This document shows, piece after piece, positions 29,556-38,999 of a DNA stretch of 40,289 nt. Location of the stretch: the NCBI GenBank assembly GCA_011364975.1, contig RDOE01000023.1:1-40289 (forward strand). The letters run 5' to 3'. The first letter of the stretch is position 1, and each line of letters starts with the position of its first letter. Origin of the DNA: Promethearchaeota archaeon. GTDB taxonomy: Archaea; Asgardarchaeota; Lokiarchaeia; Sigyniarchaeales; SOKP01. The notes below the pieces were generated by a model. The model did not search any database, was not told the origin of the DNA, and saw only the letters and a list, made by a program, of their open reading frames with translations. Both the position numbers and the translations under genes were made by a program.

Positions 29556-31220
29556 GTGTCGAAATTATTAATTAAAAATGGTTTGATATTTGATCCAATT
29601 AACAGTATTGCAGGGGAAGTTAATGATATTCTAATTGAGAATGGAAAAATTGTGAATAAATTTAGTAATGAAAAAAATGTAAAAGAAATTAATGCAAAAG
29701 ATAAAACCATTATTCCTTCAGCATTAGATATTCATGCCCATATAGCATCTCATCAATTAAACCTAGTCCGTTTATTAGGAGCGAGAGATCTGAAATTTCA
29801 AAAGCATTGGGCAGGATTAAAGCTACTAGACATAACCAAGAATTATATAATGCAAGGTTTTTCTTTCATTTTAGAGGCAAATGTAATGCCTTCATTTGCT
29901 AAACAAACAACATTTGATTTTTTACGTATACCCGTTTTAGATAAAGGATTCCTTTTAAATATCAGTAATTTATGGGCTTTGGAACTTGAATATCAAAAGG
30001 GGTTATATCAGGACGGTGCAATGTTTGTATCTGATCTTTTAAGGAAAGTTAAAGGTTTTGGAGTCAAGATATATAATCCTTTTGAAGCTGAAAATTGGAA
30101 TTGGAACATTTTAAGGAAAGAGCTAACTGAAAAAGGAAGACTTTATAATTTCAATCCTTTAGATGTTTATATTACTGTTACAAAAATAGTTGAATTTCTT
30201 AAACTTCCCCACTCTGTTCATGCCCATATCGAAGGATATGAATCCCGAGAAGTTAAAGAGAATCTTATGAAAGTTTTAAATGAAATTAAACCCTTAAATC
30301 CAATTGAGGCCAGTTCTAATAATCTAAAAGTTGGTAGATCTCAAATTTTTCATTTAGCTCACGCATCTTCTTATAATATTGATGGAGATAATTCGGAGCT
30401 AATAGATTTCTTCAATAAAAATATAAAGTTTGATCTAGACATAGGTTTTGTTGGATTTAACCCAATAAATCCTATAATGACTTCAGACAGAAGATTTTTC
30501 AATTCCTTTAAAAACTTAAATGAAAAAAGACCTGTCGTAAGAGAATCCTTAGAATCGGAAGGTGATAGTTTTATCGGTGTAAGAGAATTCAATAAACGGA
30601 ATGTTGATCATTGTAATCTGTGGGGTAATGCTTTAGACTTAGCATTGAATATTAAAAATAAATGGCAACTTCAATTTTCAGTTAATTTTCCAATTTACAG
30701 TGATATCAAGAACACTCCCCTGATTTATGAATGGTTAATGAATAAAAATTCAAGGGAACGATTTATGAAAGATATGAATACCGAATTTTTGAAAAAGCAT
30801 CCAATTGTTAATAACTCTGATGAGTATTCTTTTAAGGATTTAATAATTATCACACGGTCAAGCCCTGCAAAATCTTTAGGATTAGAAAAATATAAAGGAA
30901 ATCTTGGATTGGGGGCTGATGGAGATTTAAATGTACTTGATATTAATATTGACACACTAGATCCTTCAAAACAAGTTGAGGAGATAATTAAAGCATTTCA
31001 AAATATTGAATATGTAATCAAGGAAGGAAATATTGTAAAAAAACAGGATGATTTCGCTCTTAATTATCCCGGTAAAATATTTTGGAGCAAGGGAAATGCA
31101 AATATAGAAAAATCAGCTACAATTCTAAACAAAAAACGAGAATTTTATGAGAAGTATAGCTCAATTTTTTATGATAGTTTCGAAACAAATATAAAAAAAG
31201 AATTTTTAAGAGAAATCTGA
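29556..31220 (+). CDS. fwdA: Formylmethanofuran dehydrogenase subunit A-like amidohydrolase (divergent)
   Basis: IKNG..FDP.N, DIHAH, G.K..NP, LPHSVHAH, ITRSSPAK.LGL, LG.GADGD; GTG start. Confidence 0.9.
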   Translation: MSKLLIKNGLIFDPINSIAGEVNDILIENGKIVNKFSNEKNVKEINAKDKTIIPSALDIHAHIASHQLNLVRLLGARDLKFQKHWAGLKLLDITKNYIMQGFSFILEANVMPSFAKQTTFDFLRIPVLDKGFLLNISNLWALELEYQKGLYQDGAMFVSDLLRKVKGFGVKIYNPFEAENWNWNILRKELTEKGRLYNFNPLDVYITVTKIVEFLKLPHSVHAHIEGYESREVKENLMKVLNEIKPLNPIEASSNNLKVGRSQIFHLAHASSYNIDGDNSELIDFFNKNIKFDLDIGFVGFNPINPIMTSDRRFFNSFKNLNEKRPVVRESLESEGDSFIGVREFNKRNVDHCNLWGNALDLALNIKNKWQLQFSVNFPIYSDIKNTPLIYEWLMNKNSRERFMKDMNTEFLKKHPIVNNSDEYSFKDLIIITRSSPAKSLGLEKYKGNLGLGADGDLNVLDINIDTLDPSKQVEEIIKAFQNIEYVIKEGNIVKKQDDFALNYPGKIFWSKGNANIEKSATILNKKREFYEKYSSIFYDSFETNIKKEFLREI

Positions 31221-31237: not shown

Positions 31238-32758
31238 TTATCCGATCGCATGATAATGTAGCATAGATCGATGGTAATAGCGTGGAGCTATAATATATGC
31301 CAATGGTCTTGTTCTAATATATGTTTCTAAGTCTTGTTCAAAGAATGAATAGATACTTAAATGGATTGTTGGAATTATCAAGTTTCTCCATCTACTTAAT
31401 TGCTTTTCAGAGAGATTATTCTCAATTTTAAGTACGTTTGGATTTAAACACATTAGAAGAGCATATTCCATCAATTCAGGAATAAATTTAGCGCTTTGGG
31501 CTTTCAATATATTAGATTGAGCACGCAATAAAATCATCCAAGTCTCTTCAGACTCCCAGGGATACAAAGATGCAATAGAGGAGAAAAACTTTGTTCCTTC
31601 GGGAATATCTTCAATCAGTTCATAAAAATAATTATAGGCATCGAGATTGGTCGAAAATGCTAGTATAAGTAAAACAAAAACCATCTCCTCATTAATGTTT
31701 TGTGTTAAATGTTGATATAAATGTGTTCTTTTGCCAATCATAGGTAAATCTCTCTGAAAATCTACAAATATTTTTAGATTTTCATAATATTGGGTTATTT
31801 CATCATAATTTTCTTGATTTTGGGAACTCCATATAGTAAATAATTTCCCCAGTAAAGAAATTTCTTTCATTATTTTTTCTCTCTCACGTGTTGGGATGGT
31901 TATTTTACGCAAAATATCATCTATGATTTCTTTTGGTTGATTGTAAGGATATTGGGTTCTTAAATTATTCTCGATCATTTTAGCGTCCCGATTATTTCTG
32001 GGAATAACAGCTCCAGGATTATTGATAAGATAGAAAGATAATTTCATCATTCTTTTTTGGGCAATATTGTAATTGTATTCACTCATGGTGATTGAGTTCA
32101 TTACTTCAGTCAAGCTAAGCATATTCATGTTAATTAAATATAACGCCCATATAGGAGAGAAGTTATGAGTACTCATTATATTTCCTATCTGATATATGAT
32201 TGAATTAAATGCATTATCTAAGGCGTTTAAAACCTCAATTAAATCTCTTAAATCTCTTGAATAAAATCTGCGACGTGCATGAATTTCATCAATCATCAGT
32301 TCACCTAAAGGAGTGAGAGTTACGTGTAAACCATTTACTTTAACAGCTCTCTCAATCGATTCTAAATCTCTTGTTAACTCTAATATTTTATCTTTAAGGG
32401 TTCTTGAATCTATTTCTTTATTCTGAATAAATTTTTTTAAATCTTTGATCTCCTTTTTTAATCTAGCTCCTTTTCCAACTTTTAAAAAGGAAAAGGAGCG
32501 ACTAACAGTAGATACATGATGATATTCTCCTTCTAAAGTTACTAAAGTTTTATATGCCTCTCTTATATCTTGAGTAAGTTGAATAAATTGCATTTTTGTA
32601 CTTGTTATCTCACGATCATGATCAATATTTATTTCTTTAGATTCAAATTGAGAGATCAGATGATATTGCATTAATTCCGATATTTCTTCATAAGAGGTTA
32701 CTATATCCTCTTTATTTTTAATTGATGATAATACTTCTAAAGTTCTTTCACAATTCAT
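31238..32758 (-). CDS. Hypothetical helical protein: wHTH-like N-terminus with coiled-coil insertion
   Basis: 506-aa ORF with ATGA overlap to the upstream gene; heptad region at about aa 48-137 followed by VTLTPLG; His/Tyr-rich tail ending HAIG. Confidence 0.8.
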   Translation of the reverse strand: MNCERTLEVLSSIKNKEDIVTSYEEISELMQYHLISQFESKEINIDHDREITSTKMQFIQLTQDIREAYKTLVTLEGEYHHVSTVSRSFSFLKVGKGARLKKEIKDLKKFIQNKEIDSRTLKDKILELTRDLESIERAVKVNGLHVTLTPLGELMIDEIHARRRFYSRDLRDLIEVLNALDNAFNSIIYQIGNIMSTHNFSPIWALYLINMNMLSLTEVMNSITMSEYNYNIAQKRMMKLSFYLINNPGAVIPRNNRDAKMIENNLRTQYPYNQPKEIIDDILRKITIPTREREKIMKEISLLGKLFTIWSSQNQENYDEITQYYENLKIFVDFQRDLPMIGKRTHLYQHLTQNINEEMVFVLLILAFSTNLDAYNYFYELIEDIPEGTKFFSSIASLYPWESEETWMILLRAQSNILKAQSAKFIPELMEYALLMCLNPNVLKIENNLSEKQLSRWRNLIIPTIHLSIYSFFEQDLETYIRTRPLAYIIAPRYYHRSMLHYHAIG

Positions 32759-33966
32759 AATATCTCCACCTTTTCAATTATAGGTATTTCAATTGAAGGT
32801 AAATCTTTACCTTCTATAATAATTGTTAAATTTTGATTCTTATTTTCAGAATAGGTAAAAAAATCTTTATTTAAGGCTTGATAAAACATAAATGCTAATT
32901 CTTCTCTCTGTTTTGACCATGTTATTTGACGGTTTTCCAACAAATGACGGTAAGAATCAATTTGAACTAATGCATATAAAAATTCATATACTAATTTTTG
33001 CCACTCTTTTGTTTGAACTTGAATATATTCATTTAGGGATACTTTCTTCCATATAAAACCTTCTATATCTGCGAAGTGAATTATCCCATCCGCAGCCACT
33101 ACACAATCTTTGTCTAACCATACATCCTGATAACAAATACCCGAAACCTCGTTTCCTTGTAGTTTTGCAGAACGCGTAAAGAGGGTTAAGAGAGCTATGC
33201 CACTTTTTATAAAATTTAGTTCGAAGATTTCTACGTCTTGCAGTGATTTAATTCCAAATAATTCGAATATTGAACTTGGGGCCGCAATGACATTATCTGA
33301 TTCGAAATATAGTCTAATATTTGATGGAACAAGGCGTAATACTTGATAGAAATGGTCTTTATAAGTTCGAAACCAAAAAAAGTTACGTGCTGCTTTTTCT
33401 ACCTCTTTTGGAAGTTGAACAACAGCTATAGCGGGGCATAAATATGCACCATTGATAGAATCCATTTCTGCTACTTTTGAAAATTCTAATTCGTCGAACC
33501 CGTTTACCAGACCTTGTGCCCCATATGGACTTTCCCCCATCCAAGACTCACCCATAATAAACCCAGTGGCTTTTGATAAACCAGCTAATCTATGTAGAGC
33601 TTTTGGATCCCGACAGGTATTCCTTAGCTTTTCAAGAGTTAAACTTCCCCCAAAAAACATATCTTGATAAGCTCCGCATCCTTTATCAGACAAATAAAAT
33701 GGTTTCTTATTGATCTCAAACGAAAATTCAGGGATTATTGCATTTCTATTTTCATCTCTAATTGCAGCTATTTTTTTCTGCGTTAATTCATTGAACTGAG
33801 CTGTAGCAGATCCTAAATATGAAAATATCCACTTTTCTAGTGATTTAAACTGGGGATTTATAGAAATGGACTCTGGTTCTACTTGAAAGAGTTCACTATC
33901 AATTGACTTGATTAAATACTTATGGTATAAAGAATTAACATTAGAATTTATTGTAATTTGGGTCAG
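32755..33966 (-). CDS. SelO-like protein-kinase-fold protein
   Basis: Frame is open 91 codons upstream of the tracked TTG, to CTG 33966; R.NA...LSDKGCG, E..S, AIAVV.LP, RLVPSNIR, HFADIE. The CDS is secure; the family call is inferred. Confidence 0.6.
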   Translation of the reverse strand: MTQITINSNVNSLYHKYLIKSIDSELFQVEPESISINPQFKSLEKWIFSYLGSATAQFNELTQKKIAAIRDENRNAIIPEFSFEINKKPFYLSDKGCGAYQDMFFGGSLTLEKLRNTCRDPKALHRLAGLSKATGFIMGESWMGESPYGAQGLVNGFDELEFSKVAEMDSINGAYLCPAIAVVQLPKEVEKAARNFFWFRTYKDHFYQVLRLVPSNIRLYFESDNVIAAPSSIFELFGIKSLQDVEIFELNFIKSGIALLTLFTRSAKLQGNEVSGICYQDVWLDKDCVVAADGIIHFADIEGFIWKKVSLNEYIQVQTKEWQKLVYEFLYALVQIDSYRHLLENRQITWSKQREELAFMFYQALNKDFFTYSENKNQNLTIIIEGKDLPSIEIPIIEKVEIL

Positions 33967-35636
33967 TAACGTCTCACCTTAACCTTTGGCATCTCCTTTC
34001 CTAATAGATTTATTTTTCCAATAATTTCAGCATTAAAATCATCATAGATATTTTTTGCGGGACTGTTCCATTCTGCGATTTCGGTTATTGCTGAATTTAA
34101 ACCTAGTTCTTTAAGTGCTGAAAGACGGGATAATACAATCATCCTCCCAATCCCTTGATTTCTGAATGCAGGATGGACATAAAGCCCATAAAGCCAACCT
34201 TGGGTTTCACCGGGAGTAAGAAATCCTGCTCCCAATACAATTTCATTCATAAGCATTTCAGGTTTTGGATAATTTCTTCTATTTAATTCCGTCATTAGAG
34301 TTTGCACCCAACTTTCATTAATTGATGCGATAGCAACTACAGCAATATCATCATGAGAAGATTTTATCACCCATTTAGCATACTTTTTGCTCTTTTTACC
34401 ACTATCTTCATTCGCAATCATTTTCATCACAGCATCCAAATGTTGTTCATTGAGAGGTCTAATATGATTAGTATCGAAACTCAAATCCCGCTGGTCAAGA
34501 TCACTAACTTTAAAAATATCAAATGTTTCAATTGTTCTAAAATCCTTCAATCGACTAATTTCTGTGAAGGCATATTTAACTTTAGCATATTCTGCCATAT
34601 TAGAAACATAACTACCATAAAAGGTTCCCACCTTCTCATCTGTCTCTATAAATCCTATCCCTTCAATAAGATCATTTTTATAGGCGCACACTATTTTTTT
34701 ATCATGGGCTCTAGCTCTAACTAAAAAGGAAGGAATCATTTCTGAATACGCGGATTCAATAGCAAACTTTGCATTTTGAGGTAAATTTCTTTCAATTACA
34801 ATATCACCTTCCTTAGTTGGAGTTATCCTTGGTCTCCAGCGTAAGTTTTCATACACTACATAAAAGAGTATAACAAAACAGAAGATAGGAAACCAATAAG
34901 CAAGTAGGTACATTCCAATATTAAAGGGTCTCAAATAATTTGCTGATGTAATAAAAATAACGGAATTTAACTGAAATTGAGACCAAAAATGAGTATCTCT
35001 ATCATAACCATCATCAAATTCTGTATATACTTCTCCAATAAGAAAACCATCAGGTGTAAAATAATCACTTACTTCATAATTTGCATCAAATGTTCCATAA
35101 ATATCATCTCTGACGTAGGATCCCGTTCTATAGAGTTTATTCCCTAAAAAGGGCATTAAATGTCCAACCCAAATATTATGATAACCCTCTAAAACTTCAA
35201 AAGAGATATCTAATAAAAAGTACGTAGATGCTTGAATACCCCCAGGAATATGGAACCATACATTCATTCCAGTAGTGTCAAGATCTTCTTGATCCGTTCC
35301 CCAAACGTAGGACCCATCAATTAAAGAATAAGAGAAAATATAATCGTCAATATCACTTTCGAAATAACCATAATAGTTTTCTTCCCAAGTCCAAGAAATT
35401 CGTGCAGTAACATTGGCATAATTCCCGTTAAAGTCAATTATATAATGACCAGTAGCTCGAAACGTTTCTGTATATCCCTCGTACCATCCACCAGTACCTA
35501 TTAAATCCCAATTATACACATATTCGAATTCGATGTCATGAGACGAAGATTTGACGCCTAAATATGGGATGCCGAATAATTGTACTATAGTAGATATCAT
35601 TACAAATAGTATTATTAAAACTGTTCGTTTTCTCAT
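33963..35636 (-). CDS. Single-pass receptor-like protein with cytoplasmic GNAT acetyltransferase
   Basis: N-terminal signal or anchor, about 210-aa acidic/aromatic ectodomain, TM (MYLLAYWFPIFCFVILFYVVY), C-terminal GLYVHPAFRNQGIG and N.PA..IY GNAT motifs. Confidence 0.85.
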   Translation of the reverse strand: MRKRTVLIILFVMISTIVQLFGIPYLGVKSSSHDIEFEYVYNWDLIGTGGWYEGYTETFRATGHYIIDFNGNYANVTARISWTWEENYYGYFESDIDDYIFSYSLIDGSYVWGTDQEDLDTTGMNVWFHIPGGIQASTYFLLDISFEVLEGYHNIWVGHLMPFLGNKLYRTGSYVRDDIYGTFDANYEVSDYFTPDGFLIGEVYTEFDDGYDRDTHFWSQFQLNSVIFITSANYLRPFNIGMYLLAYWFPIFCFVILFYVVYENLRWRPRITPTKEGDIVIERNLPQNAKFAIESAYSEMIPSFLVRARAHDKKIVCAYKNDLIEGIGFIETDEKVGTFYGSYVSNMAEYAKVKYAFTEISRLKDFRTIETFDIFKVSDLDQRDLSFDTNHIRPLNEQHLDAVMKMIANEDSGKKSKKYAKWVIKSSHDDIAVVAIASINESWVQTLMTELNRRNYPKPEMLMNEIVLGAGFLTPGETQGWLYGLYVHPAFRNQGIGRMIVLSRLSALKELGLNSAITEIAEWNSPAKNIYDDFNAEIIGKINLLGKEMPKVKVRRY

Positions 35637-35890
35637 AATTTTAATTTAACTCGTAATGTTATTGGATTATATATTGTAATATTATTAATGCATATCTTAA
35701 TTTAAAGTGCATTAATATGGAATTTCTTATGGATTTTAATATAAACTTACCCTTTTAAATCTTCATATTGTAGTGAGATTGGCTTTTTTAAAAAAGCTTA
35801 CATACATGTCAAAACTTTAATAGTGAATTTATCCAAATAAATAATATATATCTAAATTTGATTCTTTGAATTATGGTAAGAGGGTAATCT

Positions 35891-36526
35891 ATGGGTGAAA
35901 ATTCAAAAGCAAGCATAATTTGTCCTAAATGTAGAAAGGAAAATAATATTATAAATGAATATTGTGTTGAATGCGGTTCCCGTCTAAAGGAAAAAAACTC
36001 GAAATTGTTTCAGATTGTGGAAAATCTAAAAGCAGATTTATATGGGAGTGTAATTTGTATAGTTGTATTTGTTGCATTCATGATTTTCGTCACATATGGT
36101 ATAATATCCAATTACGGAGCCTATGGTTTTATTTCAATTCTAATCATTTGGCCCTTAACAATAGGGTTTATCCTATGGACAAGACATTATCTAAAGGGGC
36201 TTTCAAAGATTAGGAGATTTACAATTACTAAGGATTACATAGAAATATTTGTGCCCCATAAACCACAATTCCATATTAATTGGACTGATTTTAATTCTAT
36301 CGAAATTAAAAGGAGTGATTCAATAACAACTGTCCCAACTGGAGATGGAATTGTTATGGGTCCCAGATTTGTATACTTTAATTTAATCTTTAGAGGTTCT
36401 AATTTAGAGCGCAGCTATGAGTTTGAATCGGGAAAAGATTTCAAAGTGAAATCGAGAAAAAAAATTTTAATTGCTTTAGAACAATTAGCGCAAAAACAAG
36501 GTAAGACCTTTAAAGCTTGGAGATGA
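35891..36526 (+). CDS. Zinc-ribbon plus two-TM membrane protein with PH-like C-terminal domain
   Basis: CPKC...YCVECG; two TM helices; F.ITKDYI...INWTDF.SIEI bacterial-PH-like pattern. Confidence 0.8.
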   Translation: MGENSKASIICPKCRKENNIINEYCVECGSRLKEKNSKLFQIVENLKADLYGSVICIVVFVAFMIFVTYGIISNYGAYGFISILIIWPLTIGFILWTRHYLKGLSKIRRFTITKDYIEIFVPHKPQFHINWTDFNSIEIKRSDSITTVPTGDGIVMGPRFVYFNLIFRGSNLERSYEFESGKDFKVKSRKKILIALEQLAQKQGKTFKAWR

Positions 36527-36977: not shown

Positions 36978-38999
36978 ATGCGTCCCTCGGTTATCAAGTT
37001 AATGTTGTTTTTTTTTATATTATTATCTTCGAATATTATAATACTCACTTCAAATAAAGATAATGAAGTGGATTTAAAAACCTCAGCATTAACTCCAAAT
37101 CAGTTTTATGATTCGTTCAAATTCTTTGGTCCAAATGGTGAATTGCTTGCTCAGCTTTTTGATATACTCTTTAATCAATCTCTCACTTTAGATAAACATG
37201 AGATATTAGACGGAGTCTATGTTTTTAATGCATCGAAAAACAAGAATTATTCAGGTACATATTATTTTGGAGAGAATGATCAGGAAATCCATTTACTCTC
37301 ATGGGCAGATGCGAATAACGATAGTATTAATGATTTTGCGGATCCTGGTCCGGGGGTTTCATATTGCGTTGTTTCAAAGATAGGGTCATTTAACTATTCA
37401 ATAAATATCGAAGCACATGTCACGTTAATCGTCTGGGATAATGATCGTTCATTTGTGGATGCGATGAAGAGAATCCTCGATTTTGCGATTCTACTTCATG
37501 GACAAGCTCCTGAAGAAATATTAATTTCTGAACAATCAAAATTAATCTCATGGCTGTTAAAGTATCTTAACAGTATCTTTTCTGGAGACGAATTGTTCAT
37601 TTTTAATCCTATTGCCTTTCAGAAAATTGAATTCACTCCCTTACAAGGGTATGATATAACTAAGACATGGTACAATACTGGAGCTAATGGAATCATCGAT
37701 AACGACGATTTCATGATCGATCCGAGCATCTTGGTTAATTGGAATGCTACAGCGGGTATAGTTAAAGATTCACGAATGCAATGGCTTTTAACCAATATGT
37801 CTGGTAACCCTTTTACCGTGCAAAGTTATATTACCATATCATTTGATTTAATTCAGTTATGGCTTAAGAATTTTGAAATATCTGTTGATGCTGGAGTAAC
37901 CAATATGGAAAATCAAGATACGAGTGTTTTTACAGGAATGAGCATCGAGTCTTATCTATTTAGGCACAATCTAAAAGGAGGATATTTGTACCGTGATGAC
38001 GATCTAGATGCCAGTGTTGTGGTTGATGTTGAAGAAAAAATAATAGCAGAAGAGAAACCAGATCTCGTTTTAAGTGGAAAAAAGGTCGAAGTTACAGATA
38101 ACATAGTTTTAACAGTCATTGGAGGGATACACACTTTACCTCCGGAAGTAGAAGGAGAGGAAAACGTAACCTGGGCAGTATCCTTCAAGGATCTACAAGT
38201 TACCTGCTTACCCATCGGAATTGCTATTGATTCCTATCAACCAGCATATAAAGAGAATCTTACGTTTATGGATTTCAAACTCACGTTTATAAATTCAGCT
38301 GGAGAACCAAATACAGATGGAAAAGTGAACGCAATCGGAAATGTAAAGCTTGAACACAACTTAGCCCCTTGGAATAATGGCTCTGGTCCAAAAAAAGACA
38401 TTACCGGACTAGACTTGGCAATGATGTATCTTTCAAGCATTTTCCATTTTAAATTTGATGTAGATGCCCAAAATATAGATCTAGTCAATCAAACTCAATC
38501 AGATATTATAGATGAATATGATAAAACTAATAATCGATTAAAGATCAAAAATTACCTTAGTAGAGGGGATAACTACCTTGATTTCGTTGACATCACTGGA
38601 GACAACTACATTTTAGGGCAAAAAGCAACCTTGAATGGAGAACCGATTGGAGGAACCTCATATGAAGCTAATTCTGCAATTGAACTTTCAGGTTTGTGGA
38701 AACTTCAAGGTGATTCATGTGAATTGCATACGGGGGACATTGATACGATAAAAGATGATTTTTCTCCAGACTTTGGTTATAATATAAGTAATAATGTAAT
38801 GTTTTATGCTAATTGTTATTCAAACTTTAGTGATAATAATGCTCCGGGTATTTGGCATGATCCCACTTTCTATATTTACATGGTTTTTATTCGCGAGACT
38901 ACGAGTTTCTGGCCGATATTATTTGTTATAATGGGTGTTGGATTAGCTGGAATCGCCACGATAATGATCATCATCTTCAAAAGAAGAGGAGTACGCTGA
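36978..38999 (+). CDS. Cell-surface protein with signal peptide and C-terminal TM anchor
   Basis: Signal peptide then DLKTS; many N-x-S/T sequons; IWHDPTF before the TM helix and basic KRRGVR tail. Confidence 0.88.
   Translation: MRPSVIKLMLFFFILLSSNIIILTSNKDNEVDLKTSALTPNQFYDSFKFFGPNGELLAQLFDILFNQSLTLDKHEILDGVYVFNASKNKNYSGTYYFGENDQEIHLLSWADANNDSINDFADPGPGVSYCVVSKIGSFNYSINIEAHVTLIVWDNDRSFVDAMKRILDFAILLHGQAPEEILISEQSKLISWLLKYLNSIFSGDELFIFNPIAFQKIEFTPLQGYDITKTWYNTGANGIIDNDDFMIDPSILVNWNATAGIVKDSRMQWLLTNMSGNPFTVQSYITISFDLIQLWLKNFEISVDAGVTNMENQDTSVFTGMSIESYLFRHNLKGGYLYRDDDLDASVVVDVEEKIIAEEKPDLVLSGKKVEVTDNIVLTVIGGIHTLPPEVEGEENVTWAVSFKDLQVTCLPIGIAIDSYQPAYKENLTFMDFKLTFINSAGEPNTDGKVNAIGNVKLEHNLAPWNNGSGPKKDITGLDLAMMYLSSIFHFKFDVDAQNIDLVNQTQSDIIDEYDKTNNRLKIKNYLSRGDNYLDFVDITGDNYILGQKATLNGEPIGGTSYEANSAIELSGLWKLQGDSCELHTGDIDTIKDDFSPDFGYNISNNVMFYANCYSNFSDNNAPGIWHDPTFYIYMVFIRETTSFWPILFVIMGVGLAGIATIMIIIFKRRGVR

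Follow-up and report, generated by a model that had tools for sequence, protein, structure and literature searches.

Three minus-strand genes of an Asgard archaeon form what we tentatively regard as a self-contained archaeal protein-modification module, in which the product of gene 2 would transfer AMP to the tail of the gene 3 product and the GNAT domain of gene 1 would act on the same protein. The genes lie in a 40,289-nucleotide stretch of contig RDOE01000023.1 (the window, meaning the whole stretch of DNA analysed), which belongs to a genome bin of Lokiarchaeia type (3.74 Mb, 99% complete, 6% contamination, GC about 30%). Gene 1 occupies 33963-35636, gene 2 32755-33966 and gene 3 31238-32758, and overlaps of four nucleotides join all three. 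The stop codon of gene 1 (TGA, 33965-33963) shares the CTGA at 33966-33963 with the CTG (33966-33964) at which gene 2 would start; the stop codon of gene 2 shares the ATGA at 32758-32755 with the ATG of gene 3. An earlier note on this DNA had described three minus-strand genes with these two overlaps, and the layout is as it said. The core unit is gene 2 with gene 3, which extends far beyond Asgard, and gene 1 unites by fusion two genes that other lineages keep apart.

The same note took the three genes to be a unit, and homology and neighbourhood searches bear this out. At the loci of relatives (tblastn) the gene order is kept for genes 1 and 2 in 13 of 13 cases, with a full-length gene 1 homologue upstream of gene 2, and for gene 3 in 12 of 13. 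Relatives of gene 2 occur in 265 species genomes; locus counts cover the best 80, and these span Promethearchaeota, Thermoplasmata/Methanomassiliicoccales, Bathyarchaeia, Nitrososphaerales and Methanoperedens. An open reading frame (ORF) of the gene 3 family, about 500 aa long, directly follows gene 2 in 79 of the 80 loci, and the remaining locus ends at a contig edge within gene 2. Methods of BLAST level detect gene 3 in Asgard only (95 proteins); with an iterated gene 3 profile the matches rise from 41 to 75 and then to 80. Gene 1 or its halves are found in 74 of the 80 loci, all six others being cut by contig ends.

Gene 1 is fused and upstream in Asgard and some Methanomassiliicoccales and is present as two genes in most Thermoplasmata and Bathyarchaeia. 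Where it is split, the part with signal, ectodomain and transmembrane segment (profile positions 1-280) comes after gene 3 in the same orientation, and the GNAT part (profile positions 285-540) is convergent on the other strand. The count is 33 for fused forms, 31 for split N-terminal parts and 29 for split C-terminal ones. Their fusion in Asgard argues that the GNAT and the membrane protein act together. Beside the module, the 80 loci show no further gene family that returns from lineage to lineage, and among mobile-element, defence, monooxygenase, transporter and biosynthetic genes none recurs there either.

The gene 2 protein and its start codon

The earlier note had suggested a SelO-like kinase fold for gene 2, and structure comparison agrees. 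The AlphaFold 2 (AF2) model of the 403-residue protein (51 homologues) has a predicted local distance difference test (pLDDT) value of 94.1 and a predicted template modelling (pTM) score of 0.92. An exhaustive VIA comparison with 48,161 Protein Data Bank (PDB) representatives places Pseudomonas syringae SelO at the top (6eac_A, Z 15.4, root-mean-square deviation 4.1, 273 residues, 13% identity). In the same run the nonribosomal-peptide-synthetase-independent siderophore (NIS) synthetases score Z 10.4-12.3 and protein kinases at most 9.7. In a second VIA comparison, with 999 chains, all seven SelO/YdiU entries take ranks 1-7, with Z 13.8-15.7 over 260-276 aligned residues. Foldseek against the PDB returns two weak matches only (E 3.6e-4 and 3.8e-4), both of them SelO/YdiU, the likeness becoming clear only with VIA. 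The top-matching YdiU structures are 2026 PDB entries with NAD bound (9jym, 9jyn, 9l29). Since these structures bind NAD, it is another candidate donor for gene 2, besides ATP and UTP.

Gene 2 also resembles SelO in the residues expected at the active site (SelO in E. coli numbering; all coordinates of the three genes are on the minus strand). Across 51 sequences that fall to 30% identity, 29 positions are invariant, including a lysine, two arginines and three aspartates at predicted active-site elements. These can be set against SelO as follows: (i) the beta-3 lysine motif LSDKGCG (residues 92-98, 33673-33693), in which K95, G96 and G98 are invariant, corresponds to K107-G-x-G110; (ii) RLVPSNIR (residues 211-218, 33313-33336), with R211, P214, S215 and R218 invariant, corresponds to RVAPSHLR, of which R170, S174 and R177 are invariant, a counterpart paired by eye and by spacing without a significant alignment; (iii) the segment DKD...FADIEG (residues 285-303, 33058-33114), around which W283, D285, K286, D287, D300, E302 and G303 are invariant, holds the predicted catalytic-loop aspartate D287 (SelO D246) and the DFG-like aspartate of D300-I-E-G (SelO D256-Y-G); (iv) the arginine of the Gly-loop, in D-E-N-R74 (N73-R74), corresponds to that of G-D-G-R87. 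The second arginine of the pair and the catalytic-loop aspartate are 69 residues apart in both proteins (R218-D287 and R177-D246). In these loops SelO has N-T-D-N and D-[YF]-G and gene 2 has invariant D285-K-D287 and F-A-D300-I-E-G, with Cys or Ala in place of the asparagine after the aspartate. The catalytic-loop region reads D-V-W-L-D-K-D-C and contains no loop of the HRDxxxxN type.

The SelO invariants come from a 13-sequence alignment of E. coli selO and plasmid-borne genes, one of them from a haloarchaeon; the homologue search had returned only sequences of at least 79% identity, so the more diverse SelO genes were taken from plasmid records. In P. syringae SelO, the part of PMC8097203 drawn on here describes K113, R176 and R183 as gripping the gamma-phosphate of a flipped ATP and D262 as the DFG aspartate.

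The gene 2 family is small, with 146 clusters at 50% identity among 1.84 billion representatives in a profile search. It is apparently archaeal only and extends to DPANN lineages. Among the matches listed, every relative that bears a source name is a 'hypothetical protein'. Canonical SelO was found neither in the genome of the window nor in 151 sampled Asgard genomes, and a 2012 SelO survey, in the portion used here, gives it as nearly absent from archaea. A distant relative of DPANN type (381 aa, metagenome contig L116:5968-7113) keeps GGR, KGxS, QELRLLPSNVR and DRD...YYTDLES.

The start of gene 2 is easily misplaced. Its frame is open from 33978 to 32755 (407 aa), but a mechanical ORF list begins the gene at TTG 33693, which gives 312 aa, and the database entry of the window's protein is likewise 312 aa. 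The shorter version is without the whole N-lobe. We infer that gene 2 starts at CTG 33966, giving 403 aa, by near-cognate initiation or re-initiation, because homologues, the model and the junction with gene 1 all point there. The 403-aa query is covered to 97-100% by homologues that are themselves about 400 aa long, and the 91 residues before TTG 33693 are conserved; they form the N-lobe, with residues 10-95 a confident beta-sheet lobe in the AF2 model. CTG 33966-33964 lines up with Met1 of the closest homologue (79% identity). In 29 Asgard loci where gene 1 is fused, we find TTGA at the junction 17 times, CTGA ten times and TAA followed by ATG twice, and at the CTGA loci the next canonical start is 15-297 nt further downstream. 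Within the end of gene 1 lies a Shine-Dalgarno-like AGGTGA (33974-33979), 7 nt upstream of the gene 2 start, which we take to be complementary to the anti-Shine-Dalgarno sequence. Its distance of exactly 7 nt to the YTG is the same in the window and at each of the 27 YTGA loci examined in Asgard.

A frameshift fusion of genes 1 and 2 was considered and dropped: relatives have TTG or ATG at the exact position of the CTG, together with the conserved Shine-Dalgarno-like motif. For annotation, the consequence is that gene callers shorten gene 2 here (312 aa) and in several relatives, whose ORF calls start at a downstream canonical codon and yield truncated proteins. The conserved start would be the CTG or TTG over the upstream stop codon.

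Gene 3, gene 1 and the surroundings of the operon

Gene 3 begins with ATG and encodes a soluble, helical protein of 506 aa (AF2 pLDDT 83.5), the obligate neighbour of gene 2. From its N-terminus, the model consists of a small alpha/beta unit, a long antiparallel coiled-coil hairpin (residues 47-137, 32348-32620; helices 47-80, 84-92 and 96-137), a beta-hairpin and an all-helical domain that reaches residue 482. A large helical protein without an enzyme motif is what the earlier note had claimed, and the model agrees on the helical nature and on the coiled coil; the winged helix-turn-helix that it also proposed was not confirmed. Gene 3 matches no family of Pfam, NCBIfam or PADLOC, and its profile finds only coiled-coil noise among PDB sequences (E 0.35 or worse). 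Fold searches, which used the full-length model with the helical domain included, are equally bare. Foldseek finds nothing in the PDB at E up to 0.001; exhaustive VIA finds only generic coiled-coil hairpins there (Z at most 10.3, residues 36-147); matches in the viral BFVD are at E 0.005 or worse with a template modelling (TM) score of at most 0.19; and the ESM Atlas gives no usable match.

What is conserved is the end of the protein. The C-terminal tail (residues 476-506, 31241-31333, pLDDT below 50) runs ...RPLAYIIAPRYYHRSMLHYHAIG and its last residue is glycine. Five of its positions do not vary (Y480, R484, P485, L486 and Y488), and four more (H501, Y502, H503 and G506) reach at least 90% conservation. 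Glycine is the last residue in 93 of 95 database homologues, both exceptions being labelled partial by their source, and in 75 of the 77 complete gene 3 ORFs of the loci, the background figure being 32 of 696 ORFs. The pattern H.H.{2,14}G$ fits 73 of 80. Proteins of different phyla are barely alignable, yet their tails are alike: Asgard proteins end in ...S-x-L-H-Y-H-x-I-G, those of Thermoplasmata and Bathyarchaeia in ...H-P-x-H-V-H-G-x-G-G-F-x-G and those of Methanomassiliicoccales in ...H-P-V-H-x-H-T-V-x-x-F-G. The cross-phylum alignment from the iterated hidden Markov model (HMM) held to about residue 240, and the tails beyond it were compared by direct reading. That a conserved yet disordered tail should close with an invariant free glycine suggests some recognition or chemical use of the terminus itself.

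At two Thermoplasmata loci (L071:8039-10624 and L087:8144-10726) the ORF after gene 2 is about 860 aa long. That of L087 is an overlapping alternative frame which also spans the membrane-protein gene; that of L071, which has no terminal glycine, may be an extended or frameshifted gene 3 relative.

Co-folding of gene 2 and gene 3 with ATP and Mg gave ipSAE scores of 0.52, 0.51 and 0.42 (median 0.51), the best of three controls reaching 0.00, a result graded as 'weak support'. The runs have at least 46% of contacts in common and a partner pLDDT of at least 76. In calibration, the mark was reached by 58 of 80 solved complexes and two of 110 mismatched pairs, and at scores of 0.60 or below by seven of those 80 complexes and both of the passing mismatches. 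We weigh the result neither for nor against an interaction.

Gene 1, which starts at ATG and encodes 557 aa, has the order of signal, ectodomain, transmembrane segment and GNAT domain that the earlier note assigned to it. A signal peptide or signal anchor (residues 5-23, 35568-35624; Kyte-Doolittle value 2.52 in a 19-residue window) is preceded by MRKR, and a transmembrane segment (residues 243-261, 34854-34910; Kyte-Doolittle 2.22) is followed by the positively charged YENLRWRPR. Between the two hydrophobic segments lies an ectodomain rich in aromatic residues, Asp and Gly (residues 24-242, 34911-35567). Because of these segments and their flanking positive charges, residues 24-242 are predicted to lie outside the cell and residues 262-557 inside. 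The ectodomain matches nothing in Pfam or NCBIfam, and an ESM Atlas feature search links it only to unnamed archaeal clusters (0.85-0.87).

The cytoplasmic region ends in the GNAT domain, whose core (residues 472-531, 34044-34223) matches PF00583 (E 3.6e-8; 34.1 bits, cut-off 20.7) as well as PF13508. It carries the acyl-CoA-binding motif A, defined in GNAT proteins as R/Q-x-x-G-x-G/A, as R492-G497 (RNQGIG), and together with the score above cut-off this places the domain in the GNAT family. Motif A is kept as R-x-x-G-i-G in the fused and split forms of gene 1 (27-row alignment). By sequence, solved relatives are weak, the best being diamine acetyltransferase 2 (2bei_A, E 0.0098), and the nearest of them are small-molecule or protein N-acetyltransferases.

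Upstream of gene 1, an AT-rich spacer (35637-35890) separates it from a divergent zinc-ribbon membrane gene. The intergenic region of about 250 bp in the earlier note corresponds to this 254-bp spacer, which has a GC fraction of 0.209 compared with 0.304 for the whole window and is presumed to be the operon's promoter region. No Shine-Dalgarno-like motif is found upstream of the gene 1 ATG in the sequence. A word look-up in six metatranscriptome runs of the same studies returned next to none of the operon's words.

The divergent gene (35891-36526, plus strand) encodes a 211-aa protein with an N-terminal zinc ribbon and two transmembrane segments. Beyond it, a 673-aa protein (36978-38999, plus strand) has a signal-like segment at the N-terminus and a transmembrane anchor at the C-terminus, and it matches no family. 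Neither protein is a recurrent neighbour of the module in other lineages. On the other side, the convergent neighbour of gene 3 (29556-31220, plus strand) is a 554-aa amidohydrolase resembling formylmethanofuran dehydrogenase subunit A (287 bits to TIGR03121, below the cut-off of 392.75). It adjoins the operon in six of the 13 relatives' loci but at no locus outside the order, which makes membership of the module improbable.

Mechanism and its alternatives

We propose that the module comprises three components here and four where gene 1 is split. The gene 2 protein, as a highly divergent member of the SelO superfamily, would bind ATP in the flipped manner of SelO and transfer AMP or another nucleoside monophosphate. 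Its substrate would be the neighbouring gene 3 protein and its target most probably the conserved flexible tail (YY..S..H-x-H..G-COOH), where the acceptor may be a Tyr, Ser or His side chain or the carboxylate of the terminal glycine. Tyr, Ser and His are acceptors of the SelO/YdiU type. The terminal carboxylate has a precedent in MchC/MceJ and MchD/MceI, which act on the C-terminus of a microcin. From gene 1 would come a CoA-binding GNAT acyltransferase that a single-pass protein with an ectodomain keeps at the membrane, and this enzyme may act on the gene 3 protein or on an activated intermediate. What we infer here is that ATP is used and AMP transferred, that gene 3 is the substrate and its tail the site, and that the ectodomain has any role. 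The outside-in signalling and the two writer enzymes with gene 3 as their shared target, both put forward in the earlier note, are conjectural.

Several observations weigh against this proposal. The link between gene 2 and SelO is one of modelled structure, motif likeness and spacing, with no significant link in sequence. No Pfam family matches gene 2 at E up to 0.1, PF02696 of SelO included; none of 35 remote relatives matches PF02696; there is no match in NCBIfam or PADLOC; and the gene 2 profile finds no PDB sequence at E up to 10. Probabilities from hhalign are 0.4 for E. coli SelO, 0.24 for the 13-sequence SelO profile and 2.4 when a 108-sequence superfamily profile is used. The sole local alignments to SelO set K95 on K107 and R74 on R87, neither being significant alone. 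The metal-binding asparagine of SelO (E. coli N247) has no conserved counterpart, its place being taken by C288 here and by Ala in other rows. NIS synthetases, which adenylate small-molecule carboxylates, also match gene 2 well (Z up to 12.3). The GNAT of gene 1 resembles an ordinary acetyl/acyl-CoA enzyme rather than one of HlyC type, and its substrate could be unrelated to gene 3. The DPANN-type relative of gene 2 on L116 stands beside ribosomal-protein genes without a gene 3 or GNAT partner (n=1). Finally, the module is patchy in Asgard, being present in 20 of 301 sampled genomes, 13 of 27 genomes of the window's genus and 10 of 90 high-quality genomes, and restricted to two families of one order. 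Such a distribution also fits a conflict or niche function.

The likeness to NIS synthetases opens the first alternative, a small-molecule or lipid-headgroup pathway in which gene 2 would be an NIS-like ligase that adenylates a carboxylic acid and joins it to an amine or alcohol, the GNAT would acylate a precursor at the membrane, and gene 3 would be a scaffold or carrier. In the 999-chain comparison SbnC, AcsD, IucA and DesD reach Z 9.4-12.3 over 270-297 residues; combinations of an acyltransferase with an NIS synthetase exist (DfoC, itself among the matches); and the GNAT is membrane-anchored. We consider such a pathway unlikely. Every SelO/YdiU entry scores higher, the SelO-type R-x-x-P-S-x-x-R and its spacing are kept, and no Pfam IucA/IucC match is found at E up to 0.1. 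The 80 loci hold no recurring monooxygenase, transporter or other biosynthetic gene, and the invariant terminal glycine of a 500-aa partner would be left unexplained.

AMPylating and acetylating toxins are known kinds, and a conflict module (defence, toxin-antitoxin or stress switch) would turn the SelO-like AMPylase or the GNAT on an essential target of the host or of an invader, the modifying enzyme being sensed or restrained by gene 3 and the membrane protein. Patchiness even among near-complete genomes of one genus speaks for this, as does the occurrence of the module in unrelated archaeal phyla, which suggests transfer. None of the three proteins, however, matches a PADLOC family at E up to 0.1, no mobile-element or defence gene recurs nearby, and large proteins in a translationally coupled operon of fixed order are unlike typical toxin-antitoxin pairs. 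With the C-terminal glycine again unaccounted for, we regard a conflict role as improbable.

The glycine is central to a further possibility, in which gene 3 would be the cargo of a new C-terminal conjugation. Gene 2 would adenylate the carboxylate of the terminal glycine and the activated end would be passed to a membrane acceptor, for example a lipid head group, the ectodomain protein or another protein; on the way, the activated glycyl end may be carried as a CoA thioester, for which the acetyl pocket of the GNAT would have room. We hold this to be distinctly unlikely. If true, it would be a chemistry like that of ubiquitin or Atg8 without a beta-grasp modifier, E1 or E2, across archaeal phyla that include the Asgard relatives of eukaryotes.

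That gene 2 is no AMP transferase at all, and instead either phosphorylates in the conventional way or, as a pseudokinase without catalysis, only scaffolds gene 3 and the GNAT, seems very unlikely: the fold is protein-kinase-like, many kinases match at Z 8-9.9, the metal-binding asparagine of SelO is not conserved and the sequence links to SelO are not significant, but 29 invariant positions with the active-site-type Lys, two Arg and three Asp argue for catalysis, the HRDxxxxN-type loop is lacking, and the arginine pair is, in the part of PMC8097203 cited, a SelO hallmark for flipped ATP. None of the three rivals, the small-molecule pathway, the conflict module and this last one, accounts for the invariant terminal glycine as well as AMP transfer onto the gene 3 tail does.

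Significance and relation to known systems

The standard example of a kinase fold turned to AMP transfer is the SelO-type pseudokinase, and the module would add a whole archaeal branch to the SelO superfamily. Novelty lies not in the enzyme folds, whose kinds are known, but in the gene 2 family, its obligate glycine-tailed partner and the four-part composition. The branch would bring a built-in candidate substrate, gene 3, with a His-rich tail ending in glycine, and this tail and a short N-terminal block are, so far as the proteins can be aligned, the only features conserved across phyla. With such a candidate in place, three recombinant proteins are enough to put the chemistry to a direct test. 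Should the tail be the site, the module would join the enterobacterial microcins as a second, independent case in which an acyltransferase and an enzyme like SelO act on a protein C-terminus, and it could reveal a new route of protein or lipid conjugation in archaea. The earlier note knew of no described system with this composition, and we likewise found none by family scans, by full-text literature search or by a look-up of terms in a survey of archaeal 'dark matter' (PMC4158269).

Gene 2 does not fit the eukaryote-type protein kinases: it lacks the HRDxxxxN loop, has no Pkinase match in Pfam at E up to 0.1, and is matched by kinase structures at Z 9.9 or below. A comparison of gene 3 with ubiquitin-like modifiers and their E1 enzymes presumably turns on an invariant, free C-terminal glycine beside an ATP-using enzyme. 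Only the terminal glycine is in common, however: gene 3 is all-helical and not a beta-grasp protein, its activating enzyme would be a kinase fold, and no ThiF/E1, E2 or JAB-type neighbour recurs.

NIS synthetases (the IucA/IucC family: AcsD, SbnC, IucA, DesD, DfoC) are the second-best structural class. These enzymes form adenylates at an ATP site that resembles that of kinases, and some are linked to an acetyltransferase: DfoC is an acetyltransferase/NIS-synthetase protein by its PDB title. They differ from gene 2 in their length of 550-600 aa, in an extra N-terminal domain and in having no R-x-x-P-S-x-x-R; gene 2 for its part has no Pfam match to IucA/IucC and no siderophore-pathway context, and their Z lies below that of every SelO/YdiU entry.

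SelO/YdiU (PF02696; 6eac, 6k20, 6lna, 6iii, 9jym) is the best structural match to gene 2. The KGxG lysine, the R-x-x-P-S-x-x-R pair, the catalytic-loop Asp and the DFG-like Asp follow in the same order and with the same 69-residue spacing. The two nevertheless have only 10-13% identity and no Pfam or profile-profile match. Gene 2 is about 75 residues shorter, without the C-terminal helical region and the Cys/Sec tail of SelO, has an insert of about 50 residues between the lysine and the arginine pair, and does not keep the metal-binding Asn. It is paired with gene 3 and a GNAT; SelO is not.

The closest parallel in logic is found in the enterobacterial microcins. MchC/MceJ form a distant SelO subfamily that acts with an acyltransferase of HlyC type, MchD/MceI, according to the part of PMC3281104 used here, and the pairs link glycosylated enterobactin, a siderophore, to the Ser/Gly-rich C-terminus of a microcin (PMC7472721 and PMC10233263, likewise in part). 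Both systems combine a SelO-like protein, an acyltransferase-superfamily protein and a flexible polypeptide C-terminus. We take MceIJ to be ATP-dependent. As a control we examined the mch cluster of E. coli CFT073: MchC has no PF02696 match in hmmscan, MchD matches PF02794 at 2.4e-11, and MchB ends in ...SSAGGGS. MchC is thus as invisible to PF02696 as gene 2 is. Aligned directly, gene 2 and CFT073 MchC give an hhalign probability of 0.13, no detectable likeness, with MchC itself missed by PF02696.

The differences are of several kinds. The acyltransferase partner is of HlyC type (PF02794) in the microcin system and belongs to PF00583/PF13508 in gene 1. The microcin substrate is an exported bacteriocin of 75 aa ending in Ser, whereas the candidate here is a cytoplasmic protein of about 500 aa ending in Gly, and the siderophore, glycosyltransferase and ABC-exporter genes of the microcin system are not found beside the archaeal module. 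A cluster-encoded polypeptide with a conserved flexible tail, as in the microcin clusters, is present in the form of gene 3, for which we propose the role of substrate. The likeness to MchC/MchD is best read as a resemblance of logic and not as family membership, and the near-invariant glycine tail speaks for a chemistry at the C-terminus or tail, of the MchC/MchD kind, instead of generic signalling.

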